Assembly (NCBI GenBank): GCA_026396275.1
Contig: JAPLXC010000004.1
Coordinates: 1,193-65,192, forward strand
Source: Candidatus Moraniibacteriota bacterium
Lineage (GTDB): Bacteria > Patescibacteriota > Minisyncoccia > Moranbacterales > JAPLXC01
DNA length: 64,000 nt
Direction: 5' to 3'
Shown: piece after piece, positions 6,807 through 62,781 of the stretch
Layout: each line of letters starts with the position of its first letter
How positions within the stretch are numbered: the first letter of the stretch is position 1
Notes under the pieces: model-generated
The model's database searches: none
The model's input: only the letters and a program-made list of their open reading frames with translations
What the model was told of the DNA's origin: nothing
Made by a program: the position numbers and the translations under genes

Positions 6807-6937
6807 GAGATTAAGTAAAAAACTGATTGTTCCAGATAACTACGATCGCTGCCAAGTAGAATAATTGTTTTTGGCAAAGTCGGCTTTATAAAATCTTCCT
6901 TTTGACGGAGGGTTTTTTTGTTGATAAACTTAATAGT

Positions 6938-9889
6938 ATGGAAAAATACAACTCGCGGAAAATAGAGAAAAAGTGGCAGAAGAAATGGGAAGAAAGCGGA
7001 ATTTACAAGAATTACAAAAAAGACAAGAAATTCTACGCTCTTGATATGTTTCCTTATACCTCCGGCGAGGGTTTGCACGTGGGCCATCCGAGAGGATACA
7101 TCGCCACTGATGTCGTTTCCCGTTTCAAGATGCTTCAGGGAGCAAGCGTTCTTCATCCGATGGGATGGGACGCTTTTGGCTTGCCAACAGAAAATTACGC
7201 CATCGAGCATAAAATTCACCCGCGGATCGTGACCGAAAAAAATATTTCTGTTTTTAAAAAACAGCTTCAAATGTTTGGTTTTACCTATGATTGGGATCGG
7301 GAGATTAATACAACGGATCCGGGATATTACAAATGGACGCAGTGGATTTTTTTGAAAATGTTTGAAAAAGGACTGGCTTATGAGTCGAACGAGCCGATTA
7401 ACTGGTGCCCCTCCTGCAAGACAGGGCTGGCGCTGGAGGATTTGGAAAAAGGATTATGCGAACGTTGCGGAACGCAGGTAGTGCAGAAAAAAATGAGACA
7501 GTGGGTTTTAAGGATGACAAATTATGCTGATCGTCTGCTTTACGATCTGGACAGCGAAGATCTAGATTGGGAGGAGCAGATTTTAGAACAACAAAGAAAC
7601 TGGATCGGGAGAAGCGAGGGAACAGAGTTCAAGATGCCAGTTGTCATTGCGAGCGAAGCAAAGCAATCTCGTACAGAAGAATCAAATTCAGAGATTGCCG
7701 CGTCGCCTTCGGCTCCTCGCAATGACATCTATATTGAAGTTTATACCACCCGTCTGGATACGGCCTTTGGGATGACATATGCAGTAGTAGCACCGGAACA
7801 TCCAATCGTCGCTTCGCTTCTCAAAATCAAAAATCAAAAATCAAAAATCAAAAATATTGAAGAAATTAGAAATTATATAATCCGGTCACAGAATAAAACA
7901 GAGCTGGAAAGAATGGAGGCAAAGGAAAAAACAGGAATGGAAATTAAAGGAATAAAAGTTATAAATCCTTTCACTAATGAGGAAATTCCGTTATTTGTTG
8001 CCGATTATGTTTTAGGCCACTACGGCACCGGCGCAGTGATGGCTGTGCCAGCACACGATGAAAGGGACTGGGAATTTGCGAGGAAATATAATTTACCCAT
8101 AAAACAATCAATCGTTCCAAATTACAGAGAATATGAAACTACAATAAAGACCCTAAATGCACTTAGAGAAATCTATAGAGCAGCTGAAAAAAAAGACTTA
8201 AGATTTTGGCTACTTGGCGGACTAGCTTGCGCTTTTTATGCGGGAATAATTTATAGGGAACACAATGATTTAGATTTAATTACCGAAAATGAAAATGACC
8301 GTATTAAAATGTTTCAATTATTGGAAAATTTGGGATTTAAAAAAATAAAGGAGAAAAAAATATCAGAAAATCTCATCAACTTTGTTTATCAACGAGGAGA
8401 AATTGAAGTTGATATTGGACCCAATCAAGGCGAATTTGGTTTGGCTGGTGATTTTGAGGAAGATATTAAATATCTAGGAGAATACCAGTCAAGAGTATTA
8501 AGCAAACGATTTGTCAAAAGTTTTAAAGAATATCAGTTGAAGACTAGAGATGAAAAAAAAGACCAAATAGACGTGGAATATTTAAGTGGTAAAGTTTTGA
8601 TTGATGATGAAGTATTGGTTAATTCTGAAAAATATTCAGGACTAACTTCCCAAAAAGCCCGAGAGGAAATGGCAAAGTGGCTGGAGAAACAAAGAATCGG
8701 CAAGAAAAAAATAAATTACAAAATGCGTGACTGGGTGTTTTCCAGACAGCGTTACTGGGGAGAACCCATTCCCATAATTCACTGCGAGAAATGCGGTGCA
8801 GTAGGGGTGCCGGAGAAGGAATTGCCTGTTACTTTGCCGGATGTTGAAAGTTACGAGCCGACCGGGACGGGCGAATCGCCACTGGCGAATATCAAAGATT
8901 GGGTGAACACCACTTGTCCCAAATGCGGCGGACCGGGAAAAAGAGAAACCAATACTATGCCTCAATGGGCGGGCTCCTCCTGGTATTATCTTCGCTACAT
9001 TGATTCAAAAAATGAAAAGGAACTTGTTGGAAAAAAAGAAGAAAAAAAGTGGATGCCGGTGGATCTCTATGTGGGCGGGATAGAACACGCTACTCGTCAT
9101 CTTCTCTACGCACGATTCTGGCACAAGTTTTTATACGATATTGGTGTTGTTTCCACAAAAGAGCCGTTTAAAAAATTAGTTCACGTCGGGCTCATTGGCG
9201 GAGAGGACGGCAGAAAAATGTCCAAGCGCTGGGGCAATGTCGTCAGTCCTAACGACGTGATAGAACAATTCGGAGCGGACTCAATCAGATTGTATGAAAT
9301 GTTTATGGGGCCTTTCACCCAGGGTATTTCATGGAGTACGGCAGGGGTAAGTGGGATGAGGAGATTTTTGGAGAAAGTATGGAAATCGCAAAATCGAATT
9401 ATGAATTACGAATCAGGAATTAAGAATAACGTTGAAAATTTATTGCATAAGACAATCAAAAAAATAACAGAAGATATAGAAAATTTCCGATTTAATACCG
9501 CACTAAGCTCGATGATGATATATATTAATCAACTTGAGAAACAAAAGAAAATATCCATGATTCATTATTCACAATTCCTAATTCTATTGAGTCCCTTCGC
9601 CCCCCATATCGCCGAAGAGCTATGGGAGAAACTAGGACACAAAGAAAGCATATTCCGGCAGTCCTGGCCGAAGCATAATCCGCAATTGATAAAAGACGAG
9701 GAAATAGATCTGGTAATCCAAGTCAATGGAAAAGTCCGCGACACTGTTAAAGTATCAGCCGATATTTCCGAAGATGAAGCGAAAAAACTAGCCTTTGAAA
9801 ATCAAAAAGCAAAAACCTTTACAAAGGAAAAAGTAATTAAAAAGGTCATTTTTGTAAAAGGCAAGTTAATTAATATCGTAGTTTCTTAG
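6938..9889 (+). CDS. leuS: Leucyl-tRNA synthetase with an embedded ~165-aa nucleotidyltransferase-like domain and two short repeat-derived insertions
   Basis: HIGH motif (HVGHPRGY), KMSKR, and the zinc ribbon CPSCK...CERCG are present. Likely start is the second Met (MEKYNSRKIEKKW). An extra segment with W..GG...R.H.D.D motif lies between the CP1 domain and the body. Confidence 0.9.
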   Translation: MEKYNSRKIEKKWQKKWEESGIYKNYKKDKKFYALDMFPYTSGEGLHVGHPRGYIATDVVSRFKMLQGASVLHPMGWDAFGLPTENYAIEHKIHPRIVTEKNISVFKKQLQMFGFTYDWDREINTTDPGYYKWTQWIFLKMFEKGLAYESNEPINWCPSCKTGLALEDLEKGLCERCGTQVVQKKMRQWVLRMTNYADRLLYDLDSEDLDWEEQILEQQRNWIGRSEGTEFKMPVVIASEAKQSRTEESNSEIAASPSAPRNDIYIEVYTTRLDTAFGMTYAVVAPEHPIVASLLKIKNQKSKIKNIEEIRNYIIRSQNKTELERMEAKEKTGMEIKGIKVINPFTNEEIPLFVADYVLGHYGTGAVMAVPAHDERDWEFARKYNLPIKQSIVPNYREYETTIKTLNALREIYRAAEKKDLRFWLLGGLACAFYAGIIYREHNDLDLITENENDRIKMFQLLENLGFKKIKEKKISENLINFVYQRGEIEVDIGPNQGEFGLAGDFEEDIKYLGEYQSRVLSKRFVKSFKEYQLKTRDEKKDQIDVEYLSGKVLIDDEVLVNSEKYSGLTSQKAREEMAKWLEKQRIGKKKINYKMRDWVFSRQRYWGEPIPIIHCEKCGAVGVPEKELPVTLPDVESYEPTGTGESPLANIKDWVNTTCPKCGGPGKRETNTMPQWAGSSWYYLRYIDSKNEKELVGKKEEKKWMPVDLYVGGIEHATRHLLYARFWHKFLYDIGVVSTKEPFKKLVHVGLIGGEDGRKMSKRWGNVVSPNDVIEQFGADSIRLYEMFMGPFTQGISWSTAGVSGMRRFLEKVWKSQNRIMNYESGIKNNVENLLHKTIKKITEDIENFRFNTALSSMMIYINQLEKQKKISMIHYSQFLILLSPFAPHIAEELWEKLGHKESIFRQSWPKHNPQLIKDEEIDLVIQVNGKVRDTVKVSADISEDEAKKLAFENQKAKTFTKEKVIKKVIFVKGKLINIVVS
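7643..7726. mobile_element. MITE-like palindromic element family A (GTCATTGCGAGCGAAGC...CTCGCAATGAC), 84 nt, in-frame inside leuS
   Basis: Terminal inverted repeats gtcattgcgag / ctcgcaatgac. Encodes VIASEAKQS... in the leuS frame and SLRGAEGDAAIS on the opposite strand, the usual signature of this repeat family. Confidence 0.6.
7823..7855. repeat. (AAAATCA)x4 heptamer tandem repeat, in-frame in leuS
   Basis: Direct read. Encodes KIKNQKSKIKN. Same repeat occurs in rnhB and the GT4 gene at 48093. Confidence 0.7.
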
Positions 9890-13973: not shown

Positions 13974-14209
13974 TGGGCACACCAAGATTCGAACTTGGGA
14001 CCTCGTCATTATCAGCTTGCCCCGCACTAAAATTCAATCTTTGTTTATACTTTTAGTGGGCGATGGAAGACTCGAACTTCCGACCTCGTCATTATCAGTG
14101 ACGCGCTCTAACCAACTGAGCTAATCGCCCAAATACTTCTTGAATTTTTAGTGCGGGGTGAACGCTCTATGCCTGCCGGCAGGCAGGTAACCAACTGAGC
14201 TATGTGCCC
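13974..14209 (-). tRNA. Interrupted tRNA-Ile(GAT)-like gene: 5' part (14163..14209) and 3' part (13974..14019) separated by ~139 nt that contain a complete tRNA-Ile. Possible intron-containing or split tRNA, or a pseudogene
   Basis: The 5' part reads GGGCACATAGCTCAGTTGGTTA, then a 20-nt insert holding a 16-nt perfect palindrome, then GAGCG. The 3' part reads CTGATAATGACGAGGTCCCAAGTTCGAATCTTGGTGTGCCCA. Acceptor (GGGCACA/TGTGCCC) and T-stem pair perfectly. The insert is flanked by CCCCGCACTAAAA / TTTTAGTGCGGGG. The 5' strand of the anticodon stem is not cleanly recoverable. Confidence 0.4.
14057..14130 (-). tRNA. tRNA-Ile (anticodon GAT), intact, nested inside the interrupted tRNA locus
   Basis: Manual fold: acceptor GGGCGAT/ATCGCCC, D-arm GCTC-AGTTGGTTA-GAGC, anticodon arm CGTCA-CTGATAA-TGACG, T-arm GGAAG-TTCGAGT-CTTCC, discriminator A. 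No encoded CCA. Confidence 0.85.
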
Positions 14210-14216
14210 TTATCCG

Positions 14217-14289
14217 TGGACCGTGCCGGAATCGAACCGGCTGCCTCCGCAGTGCAAATGCGGCGCTCTACCAGGTGAGCTAACGGCCC
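14217..14289 (-). tRNA. tRNA-Ala (anticodon TGC)
   Basis: Manual fold: GGGCCGT-TA-GCTC-ACCTGGT-AGAGC-G-CCGCA-TTTGCAC-TGCGG-AGGCA-GCCGG-TTCGATT-CCGGC-ACGGTCC-A. Confidence 0.85.
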
Positions 14290-16695: not shown

Positions 16696-16717
16696 AATTA
16701 AGAATTATAGATATGCA

Positions 16718-16743
16718 AAAAGATGCTTGAAAGCATCTTTTTA
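16718..16743 (+). terminator. Rho-independent terminator after rplA
   Basis: agatgctt-ga-aagcatct stem followed by TTTT. Confidence 0.5.
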
Positions 16744-16814
16744 AATTTGTTGACATTTATGATTTAATATTTTAGGATGTTATGAAGCTCTTTAAAATAA
16801 AAGGGAGGTAAAAA

Positions 16815-17831
16815 ATGAATATAAAGGTAAGGAAGATAAGGGAAGATGCTAAAGTTCCAATTAGGGCATCTGATGGTGCAGTAGGATATGATGTTTTTGC
16901 TTCAAGGGTACTGGATAAATTTACCAAGGAAGTAATTCAGGATTTGCCGGTAGAAATACTTGGTGGCGCTAGTGTATTAATCGGTATTGGAGTAAAAATG
17001 GCTGTGCCCTGGCCGTATGAGTGCCAAGTTAGACCCAGGAGTGGTCTTGCGAGTAAATTTGACATCGAACTTTCTAATTCTCCAGGAACAATAGATCCCG
17101 ACTTCAGGGGCGAAGCAGGTGTTCTTTTGAGAAATAGAGGAAAAGAAACTTTTGTTGTGGAAAAGAATATGAGAATTGCTCAATTAATTTTCTCTAAAGT
17201 CGAAATCCCGATTTTAGAAGAAACGAAAGAGCTCCCTGCAACTAGGAGGGGAACTGGCGGTTTTGGATCAACAGGACTTCATGGAGATGGATTAGGGACT
17301 GATGAATATAATGAATACATAAAAGAAATGGATAGGTATTATATGAGAGTGGTTCTTGCAGTAGCGGATCGCTCCACATGTGTCAGGGGGGTAAAAAAAG
17401 TAAATGGTAAATATGAAAGAGATAAAAAGGGAAAATTGGTTGGCCAGAATCGCAGATTCGGTTGTGTGATTGTGAAGAATGATAATATCCTTGCTCAAGG
17501 TTTTAATGACCAATATTACGGTTCTCCAAAATGTGCTGACGCAGGATGTTTGAGGGAGGAGTTGAATATTCCCTCTGGTACGCAAATTGAAAAATGCAGA
17601 GCAATGCATGCCGAGTGGTGGGCATTCACTAATGCAGGTAAAATGGATAGCTCGCCGACACTTAAAGGTGCTACTGTCTATGTCAATGCGGAACCATGCG
17701 AAATATGCGCAAAGATGATTGTTGGTTTTGAGATTGATACAGTTGTTTTACTAAAAGGTATTTATCCAACTAATGGCATCAGGATTTTAAAAGAAGGAGG
17801 AGTGAATATAAGGTATATTGAAATTAATTAA
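16815..17831 (+). CDS. Fusion protein: N-terminal dUTPase-like domain plus C-terminal dCMP/cytidine deaminase zinc-binding domain
   Basis: N-terminal half has dUTPase motifs (GYDVFAS, GTIDPDFRGE, RRGTGGFGSTG). C-terminal half has the deaminase signature HAEWWA...PCEICAKMI. Confidence 0.7.
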   Translation: MNIKVRKIREDAKVPIRASDGAVGYDVFASRVLDKFTKEVIQDLPVEILGGASVLIGIGVKMAVPWPYECQVRPRSGLASKFDIELSNSPGTIDPDFRGEAGVLLRNRGKETFVVEKNMRIAQLIFSKVEIPILEETKELPATRRGTGGFGSTGLHGDGLGTDEYNEYIKEMDRYYMRVVLAVADRSTCVRGVKKVNGKYERDKKGKLVGQNRRFGCVIVKNDNILAQGFNDQYYGSPKCADAGCLREELNIPSGTQIEKCRAMHAEWWAFTNAGKMDSSPTLKGATVYVNAEPCEICAKMIVGFEIDTVVLLKGIYPTNGIRILKEGGVNIRYIEIN

Positions 17832-17840
17832 GACCTAGAA

Positions 17841-17875
17841 AGGCTCTTAGTTTGAATAAACTAAGAGCTTTTTCC
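17841..17875 (+). terminator. Rho-independent terminator
   Basis: gctcttag / ctaagagc stem followed by TTTTT. Confidence 0.5.
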
Positions 17876-17891
17876 TTTATTAAGCCGTTTT

Positions 17892-17920
17892 TTGACAAGT
17901 TTGGCTAAAGGCGGTACAAT
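17892..17920 (+). promoter_or_regulatory. Candidate sigma70 promoter TTGACA-17-TACAAT
   Basis: Read directly, 25 nt upstream of the dCMP deaminase start. Confidence 0.45.
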
Positions 17921-17944
17921 GAAATAACTGATTACTAACTTCCT

Positions 17945-18469
17945 ATGGCTAAAAAAGCTTTAAAAAAGAAAAATAAAAAGAGCGAGGAAAAGTATATTCG
18001 TCCGTCTTGGGATGAGTATTTTTTAGATCTAGTAGAAGCTGTTGGAAAAAGAGCTACCTGTGATAGAGGGAGAACAAGCTGTATAATTGTTCGCGAAAAA
18101 AGAATTCTTTCCACCGGTTATGTCGGTTCACCAATCGGAGCCAAGCACTGCGACGATGCGGGGCATGAGATACACACGGTTATCCAAGAGGATGGCACTC
18201 AATCTCGGCATTGCATCAGAACCAGCCACGCGGAGCAGAATGCTATTGCCAATGCTGCCAGATTCGGTATGCCTCTGGAAGGCGGAACACTTTATGCCCA
18301 TATGGCTCCCTGCTACACTTGCGCCAAAATGATTATAAACTCCGGGATAAAAAGAGTGGTCTGCCGGGTTGATTATCATGGCGCCAAACGCGCTAAAGAA
18401 ATTTTCAAGGAATGCGGGATTGAATTTGAACAGATTGAAGATAAAATGCAAACTTATAAAGATATGTAA
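17945..18469 (+). CDS. dCMP deaminase (ComEB-type)
   Basis: HAEQNAI...PCYTCAKMIINSGIKRVV. Confidence 0.8.
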   Translation: MAKKALKKKNKKSEEKYIRPSWDEYFLDLVEAVGKRATCDRGRTSCIIVREKRILSTGYVGSPIGAKHCDDAGHEIHTVIQEDGTQSRHCIRTSHAEQNAIANAARFGMPLEGGTLYAHMAPCYTCAKMIINSGIKRVVCRVDYHGAKRAKEIFKECGIEFEQIEDKMQTYKDM

Positions 18470-18531
18470 TTCAAACGTACTACTTTTTCTGGTGTATGCT
18501 AAAAAAGCAGCACGCTTACAAAAAGTCAAAA

Positions 18532-19083
18532 ATGAGAAAAATAATCGCCATACTTGGATTACCCGGAGCTGGTAAAACCGAAGTTATAAATTATCTTATA
18601 AAAAAATACAACTGGCCGAAAGTTTATTTTGGCGATGTTACTTTTGATGAAGTTAAAAGGCGCGGATTGGAAATAAATGAGAAAAATGAAAGAACGGTGC
18701 GAGAAGATTTGCGCGCAAAATATGGAAGGTTGCATTATGCGTCGCAGGTAATAAAAAAGATTGAAGCGTTGCCGTCCGACACAAATGTCCTTGTGGAGAG
18801 TTTATACGACTGGAGGGAATATCTTTTTTTCAAAGAAAAATTTGGAAAGGAATTTATGACAATTGCGACTTATGCTTCGCCTGAAACTAGGTATGAGAGG
18901 CTGTCAAAAAGGCCAGAAAGGCCATTGACTCCGGAAGTAGCCCAAAGCCGGGATTATGCTCAAATTGAGAATCTTTTTCAAGCCGGACCAATTGCGATGG
19001 CGAATTATACCATAAATAATGAAGGTACATTTGAAGAACTTTATAGTCAGGTTGATGAGATAATAGAAAATATAAATAAATGA
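18532..19083 (+). CDS. P-loop deoxynucleoside monophosphate kinase-like protein (resembles phage T4 gp1-type dNMP kinase)
   Basis: Walker [12 protein letters not shown]. The C-terminal [16 protein letters not shown] resembles, from my memory of the T4 gp1 sequence, its C-terminal segment. The ORF could start earlier, at 18496. Confidence 0.5.
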
Positions 19084-19874
19084 AACAATATCTAGATTTA
19101 TTGCAAAAAATAATGGAAGAAGGGGTTAACAAAGAAAATAGAACCGGTATTGATACAAGAAGTATTTTTGGTTATCAATTGCGTTTTAATCTGGAAGAAG
19201 GATTTCCGCTTCTTACGACCAAAAAAATGCATCTGAAGTCCATTATTCACGAACTAATTTGGTTTTTGAAAGGCGAAACGAATATAAAATATCTTCACGA
19301 CAATGGAGTAACGATCTGGGACGAGTGGGCGAATGAAAAAGGGGAACTCGGTCCGGTTTATGGCTATCAATGGCGGCACTGGAAAAAATATGAGGGAGGG
19401 GAAGTTGACCAGATCAGCGAGGCGATTGAAAAAATAAAAAACAAGCCAAATGACCGAAGAATAATAGTGAGCGCCTGGAATGTTGGGGAAATTGAAAAAA
19501 TGGCGCTCCCTCCCTGCCATTTATTATTTCATTTTTATGTAGCCGATGGAAAATTATCCTGTCTAATGTATCAGCGAAGCTGTGATACTTTTCTGGGAGT
19601 GCCGTTCAATATTGCATCTTATGCACTTCTTACTATGATGTTTGCGCAGGTTTGCAGTTTGAAACCGGGAGAATTCGTACATATTTTGGGTGATACCCAT
19701 ATCTATCATAATCATTTTGATCAAGTGAAACTGCAATTAAGCCGGGAACCAAAAAAACTGCCGACTATGAAAATCAATCCGAAAGTGAAAAATATTTTTG
19801 ATTTTAAATACGAAGATTTTACACTGGAAGGATATGATCCCCATCCGGCGATTAAAGCGCCAATCGCGGTTTAG
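19080..19874 (+). CDS. thyA: Thymidylate synthase
   Basis: [51 protein letters not shown]. Confidence 0.9.
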
Positions 19875-19947: not shown

Positions 19948-20436
19948 ATGAAATCGACTATCTCTATCATCGCAGCTATTGCCGAAAAAAATCGGGCTAT
20001 CGGCAAAGATAATAAATTGCTTTGGCATATTCCGGAAGACCTAAGACGTTTTAAAAATCTCACCACTGGACACGCAATAATAATGGGGCAAAAAACTTTT
20101 GAGTCGCTTGGAAAACCTCTGCCAAACCGCACCAATATTGTTATTTCGAACAATCCCGATTTTAATCCCCAAAATGTTATTGTGACAAGATCAATTGAAG
20201 AATCTCTGAAAAAAGCTAGGGAAATAGAGAAAGAAGAAATATTTATTTGTGGCGGAGGATTAATTTACCGACAATTTCTACTACTGGCTGACAAATTGTA
20301 TTTAACTATTATTGAAGGAAACTTTGAAGCTGATACTTTTTTTCCAGATTATTCGGAGTTTAGTAAAATTGTTAAAGAAGAAAAAAGTTCAGATGAGAAA
20401 TATAATTATAAATTTGTGGAGTTAGTCAGAGAATAA
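19948..20436 (+). CDS. folA: Dihydrofolate reductase
   Basis: ISIIAAIAEKNRAIGKDNKLLWHIPEDLRRFKNLTTGHAIIMGQKTFESLG. Confidence 0.85.
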   Translation: MKSTISIIAAIAEKNRAIGKDNKLLWHIPEDLRRFKNLTTGHAIIMGQKTFESLGKPLPNRTNIVISNNPDFNPQNVIVTRSIEESLKKAREIEKEEIFICGGGLIYRQFLLLADKLYLTIIEGNFEADTFFPDYSEFSKIVKEEKSSDEKYNYKFVELVRE

Positions 20437-20440
20437 AAAT

Positions 20441-21055
20441 ATGAAAAAAAACAAGAAACGGAGATTGTTCATTGTCTTTGAAGGACTTGATGGTTCCGGC
20501 CAGACAACGCAAATAAACTTATTAGAAAAATATCTAAAATTAAAAGGAAAAAAAGTGCATATGACAGCTGAACCATCAAGCAGTTTAATTGGCGGATTAA
20601 TTCGGGCAGTTTTGACGCATCATTGGAAATTGAGCAACACCGGATTACAGCTTCTCTATTGCGCTGACAGGGCGCATCATCTTGAAACAGAAGTGTACCC
20701 GGCGCTTGCGAAAGGAAATATCGTGTTATCAAGCCGCTACTTTTTTTCAACCATCGCCTTTGGCTCTTTGAATAATGACACTAGATGGCTGGAAAAAATC
20801 AATGAAAAATTTCCAAAACCTGATGTCACTTTTTTCATCAATGTTTCTCCAAAAGAGTGCATTAAAAGATTAGATCTTTCAAGATTCAGAAAAGAAATTT
20901 TTGAAAAGGAGGAAAAAATGGGAAAGGTCTTAAGAACCTATATTAAAATAGGTAAAAACAAAAAATATAAAAATTTCTTTACTATCAACGGGGAACAGCC
21001 CGTCGAAAAAATTTCACAGGATGTAATTAAAATTATTGACAAATTTATTAGATAA
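20441..21055 (+). CDS. tmk: Thymidylate kinase
   Basis: P-loop FEGLDGSGQTTQ and the DR..H LID region. Confidence 0.85.
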   Translation: MKKNKKRRLFIVFEGLDGSGQTTQINLLEKYLKLKGKKVHMTAEPSSSLIGGLIRAVLTHHWKLSNTGLQLLYCADRAHHLETEVYPALAKGNIVLSSRYFFSTIAFGSLNNDTRWLEKINEKFPKPDVTFFINVSPKECIKRLDLSRFRKEIFEKEEKMGKVLRTYIKIGKNKKYKNFFTINGEQPVEKISQDVIKIIDKFIR

Positions 21056-21129: not shown

Positions 21130-21852
21130 ATGATTTTTGAAGATAGTAATACTGTTATGGTTAATGGCCGGATTGATGATGGTTACAGAGAAGCAATGCT
21201 TCTTTGCGTGAGAAATGGCTGGGATTTTGTAGTAAAAGGCGGGAGTTATGTCGGGCAAATTAGAAAACAGTTGGAAAATGTCCAGATAATAATAGGGGAT
21301 CCGAGTAAAAGACCGCTGGCTCCAGTTTTGCCGCCTGGAATTCCCGCCAGTACCAGTGATGAAAAAATAGATAAATATTTTGCCGAATATCTGATGAGCA
21401 CCGAGGTCAAAGAAAATGAGGAATATACCTATGGCACCTACATTGTTCCACAAGTTCCGAAAATAATCGAAATATTGAATAAGGCAAAAGGAAACACTAA
21501 TCAGGCCTGCATAAGCATCGGGGATATTAATTCAATTAATCTTCCTGATCCACCCTGTTTAAAGCTTATAAGCTTTAAGGTTGTAAAAGGAAAATTGATT
21601 ATGACAGTTTTTTTTAGATCTTGGGACTTATATGCAGGTCTGCCAGAAAATCTGGGAGGGCTGCAACTACTCAAAGAATTTGTTTTTGCTCATCTCGATT
21701 TTGAGTGCTCTGACGGGAAAATGATTGCTTATAGCGACGGGCTTCACCTCTATGAACAGTACTTTGATTTAGTAAATGTTCTGAATGTGGATAAAGTTGT
21801 TATTAGCAAAATAGCGGCAAAAGATAAGGAGGAATTTTCAAAAACTCTTTAG
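21130..21852 (+). CDS. Divergent thymidylate synthase-superfamily paralog (candidate pyrimidine nucleotide hydroxymethylase/methylase)
   Basis: Catalytic-core motifs retained: PPCLKLISFKV (PPC nucleophile), GKLIMTVFFRSWDLYAGLPEN (compare QRSxDxxLGxPFN), DGLHLY. The N-terminal ~95 aa are unrelated to ThyA. Confidence 0.5.
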   Translation: MIFEDSNTVMVNGRIDDGYREAMLLCVRNGWDFVVKGGSYVGQIRKQLENVQIIIGDPSKRPLAPVLPPGIPASTSDEKIDKYFAEYLMSTEVKENEEYTYGTYIVPQVPKIIEILNKAKGNTNQACISIGDINSINLPDPPCLKLISFKVVKGKLIMTVFFRSWDLYAGLPENLGGLQLLKEFVFAHLDFECSDGKMIAYSDGLHLYEQYFDLVNVLNVDKVVISKIAAKDKEEFSKTL

Positions 21853-21916: not shown

Positions 21917-22474
21917 TTGAAGACAAGCCATTTTATGAAAAGGAGAAATATCGAAGTTGAAATTAGGAGTTTTATTTCCAAAGAGGAATATGATGAATTA
22001 CTGAAATTTTTTGAAGAGAGAGGAAAGCTAATTAGCAAAGACAAGCAGGAAACTTATTATTTTAAAGGACTGTGGGATCTGCGGATCCAAAAGAATAATT
22101 TTTATTCAAAGATCTGGTTCAAGAAAGGAAAAATTCATGACGACTTCCGGGAAGAAATTGAAATAAAATTTGATAGCGGTGATTTTAATGAATTAAAAAA
22201 ATTGTTTGATGCTCTTGGTTATAAGGTCGATATAAAATGGCTGCGAACTAGACATACTTTCAGATGGCAGGGAATTACAGTAACAGTTGATTTTACCAAA
22301 GGATACGGCTATATTATTGAGCTGGAAAAAATGACAAGGAGAATAGAAAAGGAAAAAGTAGTCAAGCTACTAAAAGGAAAGTTAAAAATGCTTAGCATTC
22401 GAGAAACGCCGCGGGAGGTGTTTGAGAAAAAATTTCAGTTTTATAAGAAGAATTGGGAAAAACTAGCCAAATGA
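21917..22474 (+). CDS. CYTH-domain protein (triphosphate tunnel metalloenzyme family)
   Basis: N-terminal EVEIR acidic motif and beta-rich size fit CYTH. Weak. Confidence 0.45.
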   Translation: MKTSHFMKRRNIEVEIRSFISKEEYDELLKFFEERGKLISKDKQETYYFKGLWDLRIQKNNFYSKIWFKKGKIHDDFREEIEIKFDSGDFNELKKLFDALGYKVDIKWLRTRHTFRWQGITVTVDFTKGYGYIIELEKMTRRIEKEKVVKLLKGKLKMLSIRETPREVFEKKFQFYKKNWEKLAK

Positions 22475-22896
22475 AAATTTTTGTCAAAAAACTTGAGCCC
22501 GAGGCAAAGATTCCTTCCTACGCCCATCCCGGAGACGCCGGAATGGATTTGTATTCTCTGGAAAACGTGAATATAAAACCAGGAGAAAGAGTTTCTTGCC
22601 GAACCGGAATTGCGATACAAATCCCGGGTGGCTATGCCGGGCTCATTTGGGACAAAAGCGGAATTGCTTGGAATGGTGGAATTAAAACAGTAGCAGGAGT
22701 AATTGACAGTGGTTATCGGGGTGAAGTCGGAATTGTTCTTGTTAATTTAGGTCATAAAGATTATAAAATAAACAAAGGCGACAAGATTGCCCAAATGCTT
22801 ATACAGAAAGTTGAGGATCCGGAAATTATTGAAGCAGAGAACCTAGAAGAAAGTGCCAGGGGCAACGGAAGATTTGGAAGCACAGGAGTAAGCTGA
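22471..22896 (+). CDS. dut: dUTP diphosphatase
   Basis: AGVIDSGYRGEVGIVLVN and RGNGRFGSTG. Its ATGA start overlaps the preceding stop. Confidence 0.9.
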   Translation: MKIFVKKLEPEAKIPSYAHPGDAGMDLYSLENVNIKPGERVSCRTGIAIQIPGGYAGLIWDKSGIAWNGGIKTVAGVIDSGYRGEVGIVLVNLGHKDYKINKGDKIAQMLIQKVEDPEIIEAENLEESARGNGRFGSTGVS

Positions 22897-56510: not shown

Positions 56511-59402
56511 ATGAAAGATAAAGGAAATATTATTAATGTATATTCGAGCGATCAAGGAAAAAACAGGCCCCGTCTTTTCGACATGCTTAAGGAAAATTCC
56601 GGTTCTGGTGAGAAAATAACTAGTGAGGAGAAAAAATTACCTGAAAAAAGCGTTGGGGCAACTTCAGGTTCGGAATTTAAACCGCTGGAGAAGCCAAGCG
56701 GAATTGATTCCGAAAAGGGGATAGAAAGTGAACAGCTAAAAGCCGTTCCGGAAAAACCGTTTGATGAGAAGCAAAAAGAGCGGCTGCTTAGTAAGGAAAA
56801 TAAAATATTTTTAGATGATTTTAAAGAAAAGATTGAAAAAGGAATCCTGAAAAAACTTAACAAATCGGATGAGAAAGAAAATGAAAAATTGGAAGCTAAA
56901 AAAATTAGTAAAGCGCTAGAAACCCTTTCTGTACTCAATAAAGGCAGAACATTAGCAATCGAGAGAGGTGATAATTGGTCAGATATTAATATTCGCAAGA
57001 CGCAACCGGATGAGGTTGAGGAATTAAGTCCAGAAGGATTAAAATTAGTTCTGTCCAAAGAAGAAGAATACAATGCAGGACTAAGAAAATTAAGTGAAAA
57101 AAAGGAAAAAGAAAAAGAATTAACAAAAAGGGATAAGGGAAAGAAAGAAGGAAAGAAAATAACTTTCAAAACAAAAAAAGAAACTAAGCAAGTTAAAGAA
57201 GAAAAAACCGAACTGTTAAAGAGTTCTATTGTTGTGGCCCTAGAAAAAACTAGCGGAATGCCGCAGGAGAGTATTAAGAAGGAGAAAGAAGCTGATAAGG
57301 AAACACCAGAAACATCTACAGCGAAGGAAGATATAAGCGCTGAAGACGCAAAAAAACGCAACGAGGAATATATCCGCAAGCACCGGGAGGAAATGAAAGA
57401 TTATCACCCTCGTATGAAGGCGGAAGAGGTTGAAAGAAAAAGAGCGGAAAAAGCCCAGAAAGAAATTGAAGCTACAGAATCAGATAAAGAAAAGGCGAAG
57501 CGCGAGTACAAAGAAACGCAGGAAAGGCAGGAAAAATTAAGGCAATCAAAAGAAGAACTAGATCAAGCCCGCCCCGACTATGCCGAGATGGATTATAAAA
57601 AAAGAAAATTATGGATGAATGTGAGAAATTATTTCGGCAATATTATCGGGAAGGGTTGGAAAAGCAGATTTAGGAATGACATAGAAACTGAAAAGGCAAA
57701 AGATTCAAGCGGCGAAGAAAGGGAAGTTATCAAAGACGAGGATGTCGCCTATATGGAAGCGATCTATTACAACAAGCTCTTTAACTACAAAAACGCAGTT
57801 TTGGAAGATATTCGGGAGCGGGGACTTTCCGGAGAAGAAATTAAAAAAGAATTGGCCAAAGAAATACTCTTTTTAGATCACGATGAACCGCTTAATTTAT
57901 GCAATGCCCGCACGCAGGCCAGAACTGAATATCTAAAGCAGGATAAAAGTTTGTTTCATCTAGCGGAAATGACAATTACCAGATTCCTTAATTTCTACAA
58001 CAAGCTCCCGCGCAAAACAAAATGGGCAATCACCGCCGGAGTGTGGGCAAGCGGATCAGCAGCTTTAATTGGCGGAAAAAGGATTTTAGCCGGCCTCATA
58101 ATGGGTGCGGGAACAGCGCAATTTTTAGATGTCGTAGAAAGACAACTTGACTTTCGAAAGTCCCGCAGGGAAACAGAGAAGATGCTAGCGGGATTTGAAG
58201 GAAGAGATGACCAACTGAAGGATTTGGATAAGATTCTTAAAGAAAAAATTTTTCAGTCCGATGCCAAGTTTCAGCGCCGCAAATGGCTGTCATTCTATAA
58301 TAGAGCAGTGGGAACGCTAGTCGCGACTGCAATTTGCTCCGGCGCTATGGCGGAAATTACTCACTGGCTTTCGGAAAAACTGGGACTGGCTGTTCCCGAA
58401 AAACTTCCTTCAGAAGAAAAAGTAACAGCGCCGGAAGGGGCAATAGCACCGGAAGAAACGCCAGCGGAAGTTGTGTCACCGGTGGAACTGGCGGTGGAAA
58501 AGGGAAGCAGTTTGGAGGGGTCAATAATAAATTATCTTGAGCAAAATCCGGATTTAATGGAAAAGTATCAAGGACTTCATGGCGGGCGGGAATTTAATTC
58601 CGGGCAAATCGCCCACCGGATGGCGCTGGAGTGGGCAAAGGATAACCCGAATTTCCCCGAAGGGCCGCCGAGTTTAATCCATCCGGATACTAAAATAACC
58701 ATTGATCCGGAGAATTTAAAGATAATAAATGTTGAAGACCCGCAAGACCTCGGATATTTGCCGGAAAAAGAGGAGTTGGCAGGAAGCGTGCGAGAAAAGA
58801 TAGCTGAAGAAATAAAAAAGCCAGAATTTGCCCGCGCGGTTGAACTTGAGCACGCGGGACTGCGCGAATCCCCGGGTGATTTTGCGGCGGAAATTGACGA
58901 GTTGAACCAAAGCCAGATTGAAGAAGCGGAAAATCGTTTTTCTGAACTGGATCAGGATGTTAAAGAAGCTCAAGAAGATATTCTTCGCCGTTACGATACC
59001 AACTATGACGGGCGCTTGGATGACTGGGAAAAGCAAGACGGAGGCGCGGAGGCGGATCTTGAGCGAATTGAATCAATGGAGCAGCAGAAAGAAATGGAAG
59101 CGGGAAAAATAGAACAACTGGCAAATTCCATCGGTGATTTTAAGTCCAATGTGACGGCACTGCGTAAAGGACTCTCATTGGGTGATATCAATAACTGGAG
59201 CGCAATGAAGAATATGACATTTGAAAATGCGCAGGATACCATGGATATTTCTTTTCGCAAAAAACTTTCTTTGCTAGTCAAGTACTGCCGTGATGAACTC
59301 AAACTGGGAAATACCGCTCGCCCTCGATCCGAGGAGACACTGGAGGAATGGACCCGGAGAATTGCCCGGATTGCTCCGCCAATAAAAGATAAGGCATTTT
59401 AA
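56511..59402 (+). CDS. 963-aa Lys/Glu-rich coiled-coil protein with two central TM helices; hypothetical
   Basis: Long KE-rich low-complexity stretch. TMs WAITAGVWASGSAALIGG and LVATAICSGAMAEITHWL. No enzymatic motif. Confidence 0.6.
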   Translation: MKDKGNIINVYSSDQGKNRPRLFDMLKENSGSGEKITSEEKKLPEKSVGATSGSEFKPLEKPSGIDSEKGIESEQLKAVPEKPFDEKQKERLLSKENKIFLDDFKEKIEKGILKKLNKSDEKENEKLEAKKISKALETLSVLNKGRTLAIERGDNWSDINIRKTQPDEVEELSPEGLKLVLSKEEEYNAGLRKLSEKKEKEKELTKRDKGKKEGKKITFKTKKETKQVKEEKTELLKSSIVVALEKTSGMPQESIKKEKEADKETPETSTAKEDISAEDAKKRNEEYIRKHREEMKDYHPRMKAEEVERKRAEKAQKEIEATESDKEKAKREYKETQERQEKLRQSKEELDQARPDYAEMDYKKRKLWMNVRNYFGNIIGKGWKSRFRNDIETEKAKDSSGEEREVIKDEDVAYMEAIYYNKLFNYKNAVLEDIRERGLSGEEIKKELAKEILFLDHDEPLNLCNARTQARTEYLKQDKSLFHLAEMTITRFLNFYNKLPRKTKWAITAGVWASGSAALIGGKRILAGLIMGAGTAQFLDVVERQLDFRKSRRETEKMLAGFEGRDDQLKDLDKILKEKIFQSDAKFQRRKWLSFYNRAVGTLVATAICSGAMAEITHWLSEKLGLAVPEKLPSEEKVTAPEGAIAPEETPAEVVSPVELAVEKGSSLEGSIINYLEQNPDLMEKYQGLHGGREFNSGQIAHRMALEWAKDNPNFPEGPPSLIHPDTKITIDPENLKIINVEDPQDLGYLPEKEELAGSVREKIAEEIKKPEFARAVELEHAGLRESPGDFAAEIDELNQSQIEEAENRFSELDQDVKEAQEDILRRYDTNYDGRLDDWEKQDGGAEADLERIESMEQQKEMEAGKIEQLANSIGDFKSNVTALRKGLSLGDINNWSAMKNMTFENAQDTMDISFRKKLSLLVKYCRDELKLGNTARPRSEETLEEWTRRIARIAPPIKDKAF

Positions 59403-60291: not shown

Positions 60292-62781
60292 ATGTTTCCC
60301 TTTGATCTCAACGCGATTTTTATCCCAGCTGTTGCGCTTTTGTCACTGGCAGTGTTTACCAGCGGCGCTTATTTGATGTTTCGCAGCTTTTTTCTTTTCC
60401 GGGCCCAGATCAGTCGTTCTATAAACACGGACTTGGAAGTAGTGCGGGTGTCCCGGCTGATGATAAAGAAAGAGGAACAAGTGAAAGAAGGATGGAAGGA
60501 GGAAATCGGGGCGATGGAACAGCTCTTAACCACACTTTCAAATGTAAAAGAAAGGAAATCATTTTTTTTCCGCTTTCTTTATGACGAACCGAGCATTGTG
60601 TTGGAAATCGCCAAGCCCGCCCAAAGCGAAGAAATATTTTTCTACATTGCCATTCCCAAAAAGTTCAGAGAATCCGTGGAAAAGCAAATCCACGCCTATT
60701 TTCCCAATGCGTCGCTCGAAAAAGTTCCCGATTACACCATTTTTTCCCCAGTTGGCTTTACGGCGGCGGCGGTGCTCACGCTTAAAAACAAATCAGCCCT
60801 TCCCTTCAAGACCTATGAGACAATGGAAGTTGATCCGCTTAATGAACTTTCCAATGCTCTTAGCAAGTTAAAAACTGAAGAAGAAGGAGCGGCCATCCAA
60901 ATTGTGCTTCGGCCGGCCGGCTTGCAGTGGAAAAGCTTCGGCCGGACAATCGCCCATAAAATGCAGCAGGGGAAACGCCTAAGGGATGTTTACTCGCCGT
61001 CTCTTGCCAGAAACTTAAGTAAGGAATTGCGGGGAATGATGGCTAGCACCAGCCAGAAAGAATTTTCTCAAAAAGAAAGAGAGGTAATTCAGCTTACCCC
61101 CGAAGAGCAGGAGCTTATCAAATCAATTGAAAGAAAGTCCAATAAAGTCGGATTCCGGGTTAATATCCGCCTGCTGTCGGCCGCGGCAACTCAACAAAAA
61201 GCCGAAGAAATCCTCTCTCATCTGGAAAACGCCTTTATTCAATTTGAAAACTCTGACATTAATCATCTGGTGGTGAAAAAAAGAGTCAAGGCAAAACGAA
61301 TTGCTTTTAATTACATCTTCAGGGAGTTTAGCGAGCAAGATTCAATTATTCTCAACACCGAAGAAATAGCCAGTATCTATCATTTTCCTATTTCCACCAC
61401 CGAAACGCCGAAAATAAAATGGCTCAAGGCCGGCGCGGCTCCGCCTCCGCCCAACATTCCCGCAAGCGGGATTCTTTTGGGCTACAACGATTATCGCGGG
61501 ATGAAAACGGACATTCGCCTGGCGGAAGATGATCGCCGCCGCCACTTGTATGTTGTCGGGCAGACCGGCACCGGAAAATCCGCCTTTCTTCAGGAAATGG
61601 CTAAGCAGGATGTGAAGAGCGGAAAAGGAGTATGCTTTATTGATCCTCACGGGGATGCGGTGGCTGATATTCTGACGGCCGTGCCCAAAGAACGGGCTGA
61701 AGATGTGATCTTTTTTGATCCTTCCGACAGTGAGCGCCCCTTCGGGCTCAATATGCTGGAATACGACCGCCCGGAGCAGAAAACGTTCGTGATTAATGAG
61801 ATGATTAATATCTTTGACAAACTTTATGATTTGAAACAGACCGGTGGGCCGATGTTTGAACAGTATATGCGAAACGCCATGCTGCTGGTGATGGAAGATC
61901 CGGCTTCCGGGTCAACGCTTATGGAAATTCCCAAGGTTCTGGCCGACGAAAAATTCAGAAGGATGAAGCTGGCCAAATGCGCCAATCCGGTAGTAAGTGA
62001 CTTCTGGCTTAAGGAAGCGGAGAAAGCCGGCGGGGAAGCGGCGCTGGCCAATATGGTGCCCTACATCACTTCCAAACTAACCCAGTTCATCGCCAATGAC
62101 CTGATGCGTCCCATTATCGCCCAGCAGAAAAGCACTCTGAACTTCCGCCAAATTATGGACGAGAAAAAGATTCTTCTCATTAATCTTTCCAAGGGCAAGA
62201 TCGGCGAAATGAACAGCTATCTTTTGGGAATGGTGATCGTGGGAAAAATTCTGATGTCGGCTCTTTCCCGGGTGGATATTCCCGAGAGTGAAAGAGGGGA
62301 CTTTTACCTTTACATTGATGAATTTCAAAACGTGACAACCGATTCCATTTCTCAAATTCTCTCTGAAGCCCGCAAGTACCGCCTCAATCTCACCATGGCT
62401 CATCAGTTTATCGGGCAGCTGCGTGAGGAAATTTCCAAAGCGGTCTTTGGAAACGTGGGATCAATTTGCGCTTTTCGGGTCGGACCGGAGGACGCGGAAT
62501 TTTTGGAAAAGCAATTTGCGCCGATATTCACCGTCAATGATCTAGTAAACGCCGACAATTATAATTGCTTCGTGCGTCTTTTAATTAGCAATGAATCCAC
62601 CAAGCCCTTCAATATGAAGACCTATCCGCCTACCGGCGGCGACCAGGAGGTTGCCAACCATCTCAAAGAACTCTCCCGCCTCAAATACGGCCGCGACGCG
62701 CAAATTGTCAACCGCGAGATTCTGGAACGGATAAAACTGGCCAACACGCCCGGCGAGAACGAACACCTCCCGGCTTTGTAA
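60292..62781 (+). CDS. Membrane-anchored P-loop ATPase of the VirD4/TraG/TraD (type IV coupling protein) / FtsK-HerA superfamily
   Basis: Two N-terminal TMs. Walker A VVGQTGTGKSAF followed by CFIDPHGD and FFDPSDSERPFGLNML. Walker B LYIDEFQNV. ARKYRLNLTMAHQ...QL conserved block. The ~380-aa N-domain is atypical. Confidence 0.6.
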   Translation: MFPFDLNAIFIPAVALLSLAVFTSGAYLMFRSFFLFRAQISRSINTDLEVVRVSRLMIKKEEQVKEGWKEEIGAMEQLLTTLSNVKERKSFFFRFLYDEPSIVLEIAKPAQSEEIFFYIAIPKKFRESVEKQIHAYFPNASLEKVPDYTIFSPVGFTAAAVLTLKNKSALPFKTYETMEVDPLNELSNALSKLKTEEEGAAIQIVLRPAGLQWKSFGRTIAHKMQQGKRLRDVYSPSLARNLSKELRGMMASTSQKEFSQKEREVIQLTPEEQELIKSIERKSNKVGFRVNIRLLSAAATQQKAEEILSHLENAFIQFENSDINHLVVKKRVKAKRIAFNYIFREFSEQDSIILNTEEIASIYHFPISTTETPKIKWLKAGAAPPPPNIPASGILLGYNDYRGMKTDIRLAEDDRRRHLYVVGQTGTGKSAFLQEMAKQDVKSGKGVCFIDPHGDAVADILTAVPKERAEDVIFFDPSDSERPFGLNMLEYDRPEQKTFVINEMINIFDKLYDLKQTGGPMFEQYMRNAMLLVMEDPASGSTLMEIPKVLADEKFRRMKLAKCANPVVSDFWLKEAEKAGGEAALANMVPYITSKLTQFIANDLMRPIIAQQKSTLNFRQIMDEKKILLINLSKGKIGEMNSYLLGMVIVGKILMSALSRVDIPESERGDFYLYIDEFQNVTTDSISQILSEARKYRLNLTMAHQFIGQLREEISKAVFGNVGSICAFRVGPEDAEFLEKQFAPIFTVNDLVNADNYNCFVRLLISNESTKPFNMKTYPPTGGDQEVANHLKELSRLKYGRDAQIVNREILERIKLANTPGENEHLPAL

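Follow-up and report, generated by a model that had tools for sequence, protein, structure and literature searches.

Why should a bacterium join a dUTPase to a zinc deaminase in one polypeptide while keeping free paralogues of both in the same gene cluster? The question is raised by a 64,000-nucleotide stretch of Candidatus Moraniibacteriota bacterium (contig JAPLXC010000004.1 of assembly GCA_026396275.1, positions 1,193 to 65,192; hereafter the window), in which one 338-residue protein carries both domains and its gene stands close to genes for thymidylate synthesis. Thymidylate supply and the exclusion of dUTP are essential in every cell, and the genomes of Patescibacteria are tiny, so what is kept there, and kept in duplicate, is informative. 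We find that the fusion is almost certainly real and that both halves are predicted to be catalytically competent. Our preferred reading, to which we give a probability of about 0.4, is that the fused deaminase turns dCTP into dUTP, which the tethered dUTPase then hydrolyses to dUMP.

The fusion gene, its parts and the signals around it are as follows, with the basis of each assignment in brackets.

16717-16742, plus strand: terminator-like hairpin 3' of rplA, ending the upstream unit (sequence scan)
16750-16778, plus strand: promoter-like site 5' of the fusion gene, TTGACA-17-TAGGAT, 10/12 (sequence scan)
16803-16808, plus strand: ribosome-binding site GGGAGG of the fusion gene (sequence)
16815-17831, plus strand: fusion gene, dUTPase plus zinc deaminase, 338 residues, ATG start (uninterrupted open reading frame, Pfam, NCBIfam, homologues)
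16815-17285, plus strand: dUTPase domain, residues 1-157, motifs I-V (Pfam, NCBIfam, alignment, Foldseek)
17244-17276, plus strand: motif V, RRGTGGFGSTG, residues 144-154 (sequence)
17277-17300, plus strand: conserved tether LHGDGLGT, residues 155-162, between motif V and the first deaminase helix (AlphaFold2, alignment)
17301-17828, plus strand: deaminase domain of dCMP-deaminase fold, residues 163-338 (Pfam, profile search, structure model)
17388-17450, plus strand: 21-residue family-specific basic insert, residues 192-212 (alignment, structure model)
17607-17615, plus strand: HAE, residues 265-267 (sequence)
17838-17873, plus strand: terminator-like hairpin with a 16-bp stem, 3' of the fusion gene (sequence scan)

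An earlier note on this DNA had described a single 338-residue polypeptide with complete dUTPase motifs, including the C-terminal arm, and a complete HAE/PCxxC zinc site. Both descriptions are borne out. The open reading frame (ORF) is continuous from 16815 to 17831, and a domain search matched both dUTPase (PF00692, residues 12-154, E = 8.6e-23, 81 bits against a cutoff of 22) and dCMP_cyt_deam_1 (PF00383, residues 210-313, E = 1.7e-18, 66.8 bits against a cutoff of 25) within it. The NCBIfam dut models NF001862 (131.8 bits, cutoff 103) and TIGR00576 (131.6 bits, cutoff 102.55) also scored above their thresholds. Motifs I-V read AVGYDV, RPRSGLA, GTIDPDFRGE, RIAQL and RRGTGGFGSTG, at positions that are invariant or nearly so in an alignment of 56 fusions. 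Motifs, hidden Markov model scores and beta-fold all place the N-terminal half in the trimeric dUTPase family. In the C-terminal half, the catalytic zinc site (H265, E267, C295 and C298, the last two within PCEIC at residues 294-298) is invariant across the 56 fusions, as are C189, C240, C245 and C261, which occupy the positions of a second zinc site. A second, structural zinc site is typical of dCMP deaminases (Iyer et al. 2011, PMC3239186), and its Cys4 form is also found in a stand-alone deaminase subfamily. The gene appears to be monocistronic, because the promoter-like site and the hairpins bracket it.

Could a sequencing or assembly error have merged two neighbouring genes? Genes for dUTPase and dCMP deaminase can adjoin in one frame, as they do in the lemur-gut phage Dulem virus 37 (PP511443.1, 2955-4891; L084), where thyX, a small ORF, dUTPase and dCMP deaminase are consecutive and the last two lie in the same frame, 57 nt apart; this is the arrangement nearest to the fusion among our finds outside Patescibacteria. 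One homologue (L082) also seemed to be split. Re-inspection near position 17280, where the earlier note had advised caution, revealed no stop and no frameshift, and the junction recurs far beyond this genome. A search of 5.8 billion proteins returned 493 relatives; the best 120 of these, to which all statements on homologues refer, stem from independent samples in NCBI, JGI, ENA and Logan, are 57-79% identical, are 294-377 residues long, cover the full query and all match PF00692 and PF00383. The same in-frame junction and conserved tether, with G161 invariant and a conserved ‘GT..Y’, are found in these 120 proteins and in about 27 species genomes, and the apparent splits are explained by an assembly gap in one contig (L083) and a rearranged junction in another (L082). 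We regard the chance of an artefact as negligible.

Several candidates for a naturally split version were rejected on inspection. Three apparently stand-alone deaminases that bear the basic insert (P0121, P0126 and P0133) are N-terminally truncated fusions. A fourth, the 165-residue P0130, is an artefact of the same two contigs: in L083 (3880-4498) an N-gap lies just 5' of it, with the fusion linker still legible in frame, and the other copy stems from the rearranged junction after the dUTPase in L082 (3475-4498).

A scan of one genome per prokaryotic species gave 38 related Patescibacteria loci (L-numbers are locus labels), viewed with ±6 kb flanks, and the active two-domain gene is present in about 27 of them. 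Their taxon labels are Paceibacterota/Parcubacteria and Uhr-, Buchanan-, Berkel-, Wolfe-, Falkow-, Nealson- and Staskawiczbacteria; a few machine-labelled metagenome-assembled genomes among them named Saccharibacteria or Gammaproteobacteria are probably mislabelled. At several loci, whether the fused domain is active, dead or absent, the gene lies directly 3' of nusG-rplK, and in the window rplA intervenes. Where the homologues carry a database name, it is ‘dUTP diphosphatase’ only, an annotation that overlooks half of the protein. No solved structure in the PDB has the dUTPase-deaminase architecture, GenBank phage records hold no fusion and one case of adjacent separate genes only, and in IMG/VR no deaminase follows the dUTPase in any of 148 relatives. 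Full-text literature searches on dUTPase-deaminase fusions, and on dUTPase with deaminase in Patescibacteria, gave nothing relevant, and ‘Life without dUTPase’ makes no mention of such a protein. The view that the fusion is unusual thus holds outside Patescibacteria; within one radiation of bacteria it is common, elsewhere it is seemingly absent, and it is undescribed. The combination of domains is new, present in databases under an incomplete name, while its component kinds are known and it is not a new kind of system. This spread had been overlooked in the earlier note, as had the presence of free paralogues of both domains in the cluster and the existence of relatives with a dead domain.

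The full-length protein was modelled using AlphaFold2 with a predicted local distance difference test score (pLDDT) of 86.4, and with a predicted template modelling score (pTM) of 0.55, at which the placement of the domains is not confident. The dUTPase core matched solved dUTPases (Foldseek E ~1e-14, target-normalised TM-score 0.85-0.92). The motif-V arm (residues 148-157) has low pLDDT, as expected of a mobile element, and the first deaminase helix begins at residue 163, so that about 8 residues separate the arm from the deaminase domain. Modelled alone, the deaminase domain reached a pLDDT of 90.2 and a pTM of 0.85, with Foldseek ranking 1vq2 first (2e-12), accompanied by 2hvw, 4p9e (target-normalised TM-score 0.88) and 2w4l; the dual-specificity enzyme of PBCV-1 ranked 22nd. 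Profile comparison gave as its first hits the dCMP deaminases of T4 (3e-13), S-TIM5 (4e-12) and S. mutans (2e-10). As modelled, the fused domain is predicted to adopt the deaminase fold in its helix-4 division, with solved dCMP deaminases as its nearest structures. Since dUTPases form trimers and dCMP deaminases form hexameric rings, the assembly is probably a hexamer in which two dUTPase trimers sit on a six-membered deaminase ring.

The earlier note had called the C-terminal half a dCMP-deaminase domain. The zinc-deaminase site is indeed complete, but that label goes beyond the evidence. Fold, catalytic site and second zinc site put this half in the dCMP-deaminase/ComEB clade, yet it lacks the HAExNA signature and falls short of the equivalog threshold: TIGR02571 (ComEB) gives 46.3 bits for the fused domain and 113 bits for the free paralogue of the window, with which it shares about 32% identity, both below the cutoff of 219.45. 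The window fusion reads HAEWWA, and another residue takes the place of the HAExNA Asn in every one of the 111 homologues, out of 120, with an HAExxA match (WW in 79, the rest EW, EM, WM and others). A further departure is the basic insert, which lies between R191 and R213/K214, directly N-terminal to the strand-1 FG(C/A) floor of the active site, here F-G-C; its conserved positions are G192, G198, Y200, D203, G206 and G210, and its basic ones K194 (75%), K195 (96%) and R202 (89%). K260 is also family-specific (basic in 80%), and the acidic residues E293 and E296 are conserved on either side of the zinc-binding C295. A motif like G(Y/W)N(A/G) is present, GFND here and GFNA in the family consensus, with the Asn invariant and Phe in place of the Tyr/Trp of G(Y/W)N(A/G). 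Among 1.8 billion representative proteins, the closest stand-alone relatives have the same Cys4 zinc insert (GC[LI]R..L.IPSG...E.CRA.HAE) as well as R191, R213 and K214, keep HAEQNA and have no basic insert. The fused domain is best called a divergent subfamily, not a bona fide dCMP deaminase.

A possible role for the insert comes from human CDADC1, a dCMP-deaminase-like enzyme with specificity for dCTP, in which a loop ahead of the V340-G341-A342 floor contributes K337, which binds the alpha and gamma phosphates of dCTP, and T338, which binds the beta phosphate (PMC12088426). The CDADC1 loop that we equate with the insert position spans T333-T338, and it is in the triphosphate-specific enzymes that Lys and Arg are most concentrated around the phosphate site (PMC12088426). 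By analogy, the basic insert lies in the phosphate-binding loop, because its position before the strand-1 floor matches that of the K337/T338 loop. We also tried the triphosphate-binding lysines of CDADC1 as a means of deciding the substrate; they are not conserved, and no positive evidence was gained. In an approximate mapping by motif offset, without structural superposition, K260 falls at CDADC1 F393, a residue that the CDADC1 authors called a ‘sensor’ of bound substrate.

We propose that the conserved two-domain enzyme supplies dUMP to the adjacent thyA-folA-tmk pathway. Its zinc deaminase domain would take dCTP, and possibly dCMP too, to make dUTP; the tethered dUTPase would hydrolyse this at once to dUMP and pyrophosphate, and the mutagenic dUTP intermediate would never be released. 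The free ComEB-like deaminase and a protein resembling deoxynucleoside monophosphate (dNMP) kinases would serve the monophosphate pool, and a second, free dUTPase would provide general dUTP sanitation. The fusion gene heads a dense cluster for pyrimidine deoxynucleotides, and what follows it there is listed in order.

17892-17920, plus strand: near-consensus promoter-like site TTGACA-17-TACAAT, 11/12, for the downstream operon (sequence scan)
17945-18469, plus strand: free deaminase of ComEB / S. mutans dCMP-deaminase type, 174 residues, with HAEQNA, PCYTC and GYVG (Pfam, structure-sequence match)
18496-19083, plus strand: P-loop dNMP-kinase-like protein, adjoining the free deaminase (profile matches, synteny)
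19080-19874, plus strand: thyA, thymidylate synthase, consumer of dUMP (Pfam)
19948-20436, plus strand: folA, dihydrofolate reductase (Pfam)
20441-21055, plus strand: tmk, dTMP kinase (Pfam, profile search)
21130-21852, plus strand: second, short thymidylate-synthase-like protein, 240 residues, archaeal type (profile match)
21917-22474, plus strand: CYTH / CyaB-like triphosphate-tunnel protein (Pfam E = 1.9e-8, below the NCBIfam cutoff)
22471-22896, plus strand: second, stand-alone canonical dUTPase, its ORF listed from a TTG at 22453 (TIGR00576, 154 bits)

Several considerations favour dCTP as the substrate. Deamination of dCTP and hydrolysis of dUTP are consecutive steps, whereas dCMP deaminase and dUTPase do not act in sequence (PMC12088426), and only a very short tether links motif V to the deaminase. 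The fusion occurs alongside a canonical dCMP deaminase and a housekeeping dUTPase, so the paralogues look non-redundant. The fused domain has lost the signature Asn of HAExNA and has gained, in its phosphate loop, a conserved basic insert that vanishes together with catalysis in the dead relatives described below. Finally, this zinc-deaminase fold has repeatedly acquired activity on dCTP, as in PBCV-1 bi-DCD, XP-12, CDADC1 and anti-phage DCD (PMC12088426, PMC12184417). If dCTP is used, the fusion would add a third, independent enzymatic way of turning dCTP into dUMP, and nature would here have coupled two activities covalently around a mutagenic intermediate.

Other observations weigh against this preferred reading. 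No triphosphate site is demonstrable: CDADC1 K337, K392, K423, K450 and K452 correspond, in the same approximate mapping, to T212, E259, A292, V310 and L312 here, so that its lysines are not reproduced, and the conserved basic residues of the fused domain are a different set (R191, K194, K195, R202, R213, K214 and K260). E293 and E296 would repel a triphosphate unless Mg2+ were bound. A GxN motif similar to that of regulated dCMP deaminases is still present, and the nearest solved structures are all dCMP deaminases, with the dual-specificity enzyme in 22nd place. The geometry between the domains in the AlphaFold2 model is not confident, the dead-domain fusions show that reasons other than catalysis can preserve the architecture, and by analogy with the anti-phage dCTP deaminases the free deaminase, with its kinase-like partner, could be the dCTP-active one, with the roles reversed.

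These points bring forward the main rival account, in which the fused domain is an ordinary dCMP deaminase, perhaps regulated by dCTP and dTTP, and the dUTPase works independently as a parallel source of dUMP. The fusion would then ensure only co-expression, co-assembly and local delivery of dUMP to ThyA, as a covalent form of the contacts within the phage T4 dNTP-synthetase complex; if dCMP is used, contacts known only from such multi-enzyme complexes would here have a covalent version. Sequence and fold place the domain in the dCMP-deaminase family (profile matches to T4, S-TIM5 and S. mutans, and the top Foldseek hits), the G(F)N(A/D) motif is kept, R191, R213 and K214 are common to stand-alone relatives, and the lysines by which CDADC1 binds triphosphate are absent. 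Patescibacteria are generally thought to salvage nucleotides, in which case dCMP would be abundant. Separate genes for the two activities are also neighbours in Dulem virus 37, and a free deaminase adjoins a stand-alone dut in four related loci (L029, L030, L032 and L033). The same account, however, makes the fusion fully redundant with the free dCMP deaminase and free dUTPase of its own cluster, explains neither the universal loss of the HAExNA Asn nor a basic insert that is lost with catalysis, and sits poorly with a ComEB equivalog score far below the cutoff. We consider it a serious but tentative possibility.

Relatives in which the deaminase has decayed bear on both accounts. Seven species genomes (L026, L027, L029, L030, L031, L034 and L035) encode fusions of 283-312 residues (open-frame lengths) in which intact dUTPase motifs are followed by a domain of 128-141 residues whose homology to the deaminase domain is unmistakable (hhalign probability 99.95%, E = 7.6e-38). 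HAE is lost in these, PCxxC is mostly lost, and the basic insert and the second-zinc insert are both lost. Since the insert disappears together with the catalytic residues, it is tied to catalysis and not to dUTPase docking. D173, R333 and the GT..Y tether are kept in active and dead forms alike. Two further loci (L032 and L033) encode a dUTPase of the same clade that ends directly after motif V, and in an Uhrbacteria contig (JACPHY010000008.1, 1973-2680; L036) a further dUTPase of this clade ends in a 73-residue hydrophobic, transmembrane-like C-terminal tail that takes the place of the deaminase domain. Dead and domain-less forms are scattered among the active fusions in a neighbour-joining tree of dUTPase domains, a crude tree that nevertheless suggests repeated decay of catalysis with the domain retained. 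The retention of a dead domain implies that the deaminase fold is of use beyond catalysis, most plausibly for assembly. Active fusion, dead-domain fusion and dUTPase alone form a series that amounts to a clean natural experiment on a catalytic domain becoming a scaffold.

It could be argued from these relatives that the domain is, in the window too, chiefly a scaffold or allosteric module for the dUTPase, which would hexamerise the trimers, order the motif-V arm or sense dCTP or dTTP, with its own catalysis secondary or vestigial. Seven genomes keep a dead domain beside intact dUTPase motifs at scattered places on the tree, the same two residues and tether persist in both forms, and CDADC1 offers a precedent in an inactive deaminase domain that serves assembly. 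A scaffold role is indeed our proposed reason for the retention of the dead domain in some lineages. As a general account it seems improbable to us: catalytic and zinc residues are invariant in the window and in about 27 genomes, in proteins down to about 50% identity, which points to selection on catalysis, and the stand-alone dUTPases of the same clade in L032 and L033 show that the domain is not strictly needed.

The free deaminase lies 113 nt downstream of the fusion gene, and between the two are a terminator-like hairpin and the region's best promoter-like site, in agreement with the earlier report of a second deaminase about 100 nt downstream with its own promoter. Promoter-like sites in the region are not above expectation (27 against 23.8 in shuffled sequence), and only the position and quality of the site at 17892-17920 are informative. 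The protein matches PF00383 (E = 5.7e-22) and the dCMP deaminase of S. mutans (2hvv, E = 1.6e-25), and is a canonical dCMP deaminase. Its residues 58-61 read GYVG where dCMP deaminases have G(Y/W)N(A/G); orthologues in L003, L018, L030 and L032 share the change of Asn to Val, and those of L006 and L017 have GYTG and GYNG, respectively. Judging from these motifs, GYVG suggests that allosteric or sugar recognition is altered in the canonical paralogue too. An active fusion and a free deaminase occur within 6 kb of each other at six loci (L003, L006, L008, L010, L017 and L018), at all of which except L003 the kinase-like gene is also near. The second dUTPase of the window is 32% identical to the fused dUTPase domain, has K for R in motif II (DKSG) and starts within the end of the CYTH gene; a second dUTPase also lies beside the kinase and free deaminase in L018 (Berkelbacteria). 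The CYTH gene itself sits between the thymidylate-synthase-like gene and the second dUTPase.

At three loci (L008, 7872-8432; L010, 4779-5330; L029, 5935-6507) the S. mutans type is replaced by another type of free deaminase. It is marked by the motif GYIGAPRKTKDCFER..CLR...IPHG..YE.CRSVH(A/S)E.NA, by an insert before FPCF(I/V)CK and by a conserved C-terminal extension, DDWIKDW...DD..QFG.

Matches of the kinase-like protein are to the kinase-like N-terminal part of the PADLOC model for anti-phage dCTP deaminase (E = 5.6e-11), to PHROG families of dNMP kinases and to Sulfolobus SSO1041/AdkA-like structures. Together, the kinase-like and free-deaminase genes reproduce, as separate genes, the domain make-up of the fused anti-phage dCTP deaminase. 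Might the fusion itself then drain dCTP to dUMP upon infection, like DCD/AvcD? Its deaminase core does match the PADLOC dCTP-deaminase (45 bits) and the NCBIfam anti-phage dCTP deaminase (41 bits) weakly, but the latter score is far below the cutoff of 400 and reflects only a generic deaminase core. The gene stands in housekeeping synteny, with nusG-rplK upstream and thymidylate genes downstream, and has a strong promoter-like site of its own, and no other defence genes lie nearby. We hold a defensive role to be very improbable.

The short thymidylate-synthase-like protein at 21130-21852 raises the prospect of a different cytosine nucleotide as substrate. It is closest to the methanogen-type family TIGR03283 (77 bits against a cutoff of 174) and keeps the catalytic Cys (PPCL), RSxD, the uracil-specifying Asn and HxY, with a divergent N-terminal third, and may be a second thymidylate synthase or an enzyme resembling dUMP hydroxymethylases; weak thyA-like matches also occur near the dut locus in L008, L010 and L032, in the last near the stand-alone dut. 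With the pocket residues after HAE altered to WW, and with relatives known that act on 5mdCTP or CTP (PMC12088426), the fused deaminase might use 5-methyl- or 5-hydroxymethyl-dCTP or -dCMP, as in XP-12, or CTP, in a role tied to this gene, to base modification or to pool sanitation. Yet the thymidylate-synthase-like protein retains the Asn that specifies uracil (dUMP) and not cytosine, the window shows no sign of DNA modification and the dUTPase motifs are canonical for dUTP, so we regard such a substrate as distinctly unlikely.

The rest of the window is housekeeping (LeuRS, GlmS, GatB, ThrRS, DnaE, MiaA/MiaB, RNase HII and a Mur ligase), with a few features of separate interest. Genes for tRNA-Ile(GAT) and tRNA-Ala(TGC) lie side by side on the minus strand (14056-14130 and 14216-14289). 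Such a pair is usually found within the 16S-23S spacer; Rfam detected no rRNA gene in the 64-kb window. The leucyl-tRNA synthetase (6902-9889, plus strand) has 995 residues, of which 421-484, after the editing domain, bear a weak likeness to aminoglycoside-2''-adenylyltransferase (Pfam E = 2.5e-6, with no stretch individually significant). A 963-residue ORF with no Pfam match (56511-59402, plus strand) is followed by a TrwB/VirD4-like coupling-protein ATPase (60292-62781, plus strand), and the two may form a secretion or DNA-transfer module.

How, then, does the fusion compare with known systems? One functional parallel is DCD-DUT, in which one polypeptide likewise takes a cytosine deoxynucleotide to dUMP without release of dUTP (a possibility here), with trimer-based symmetry and thymidylate synthesis as the beneficiary. 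DCD-DUT, however, has a single, zinc-independent active site of the dUTPase fold, whereas the fusion joins two unrelated domains, one of the dUTPase fold and one of the zinc deaminase fold, and the dCTP_deam model TIGR02274 gives it 24.3 bits against a cutoff of 92.8. It is not a DCD-DUT family member and at most a functional analogue. In the fullest form of our preferred reading, it would be an unrecognised dCTP-to-dUMP enzyme convergent with DCD-DUT: a dCTP deaminase derived from a dCMP deaminase by way of a rebuilt phosphate loop, passing dUTP between active sites, with trimers capping a ring and with a pseudo-enzyme scaffold in some lineages. This whole we put forward as a tentative picture.

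The PBCV-1 bi-DCD (PDB 7FH4), a zinc dCMP/dCTP deaminase, shows that the dCMP-deaminase fold can make dUTP, as proposed here, and acts together with a trimeric dUTPase to yield the dUMP from which dTTP is made; unlike the fused domains, bi-DCD and the viral dUTPase are separate proteins, and bi-DCD has no basic insert. The hexameric dCMP deaminases (S. mutans 2HVW, T4 1VQ2, S-TIM5 4P9C, human DCTD 2W4L; ComEB) share with the fused domain the fold, HxE/PCxxC, the second zinc site and a GxN motif (with Phe for Tyr/Trp in the fused domain). The fused domain departs from canonical members in its loss of the HAExNA Asn, its 21-residue basic insert, its Cys4 second zinc site and its dUTPase partner, and the free deaminase at 17945-18469 is closer to them than it is. 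Vertebrate CDADC1 demonstrates that this fold can specialise on a triphosphate by means of a basic patch to which the loop before strand 1 contributes, and its inactive deaminase domain, kept for ring assembly, parallels the dead-domain fusions. In contrast to the fusion, CDADC1 is a (d)CTP deaminase without a dUTPase, made of one inactive and one active DCTD-like domain, with five lysines, and is restricted to vertebrates. Anti-phage DCD/AvcD resembles the fusion in joining a zinc deaminase of the same superfamily to another nucleotide-handling domain, but its partner is a kinase-like domain, its role is defence and the scores are 41-51 bits against 400. The fusion thus belongs to neither the CDADC1 nor the anti-phage DCD (NF041025 / PADLOC PDLC02373) family.

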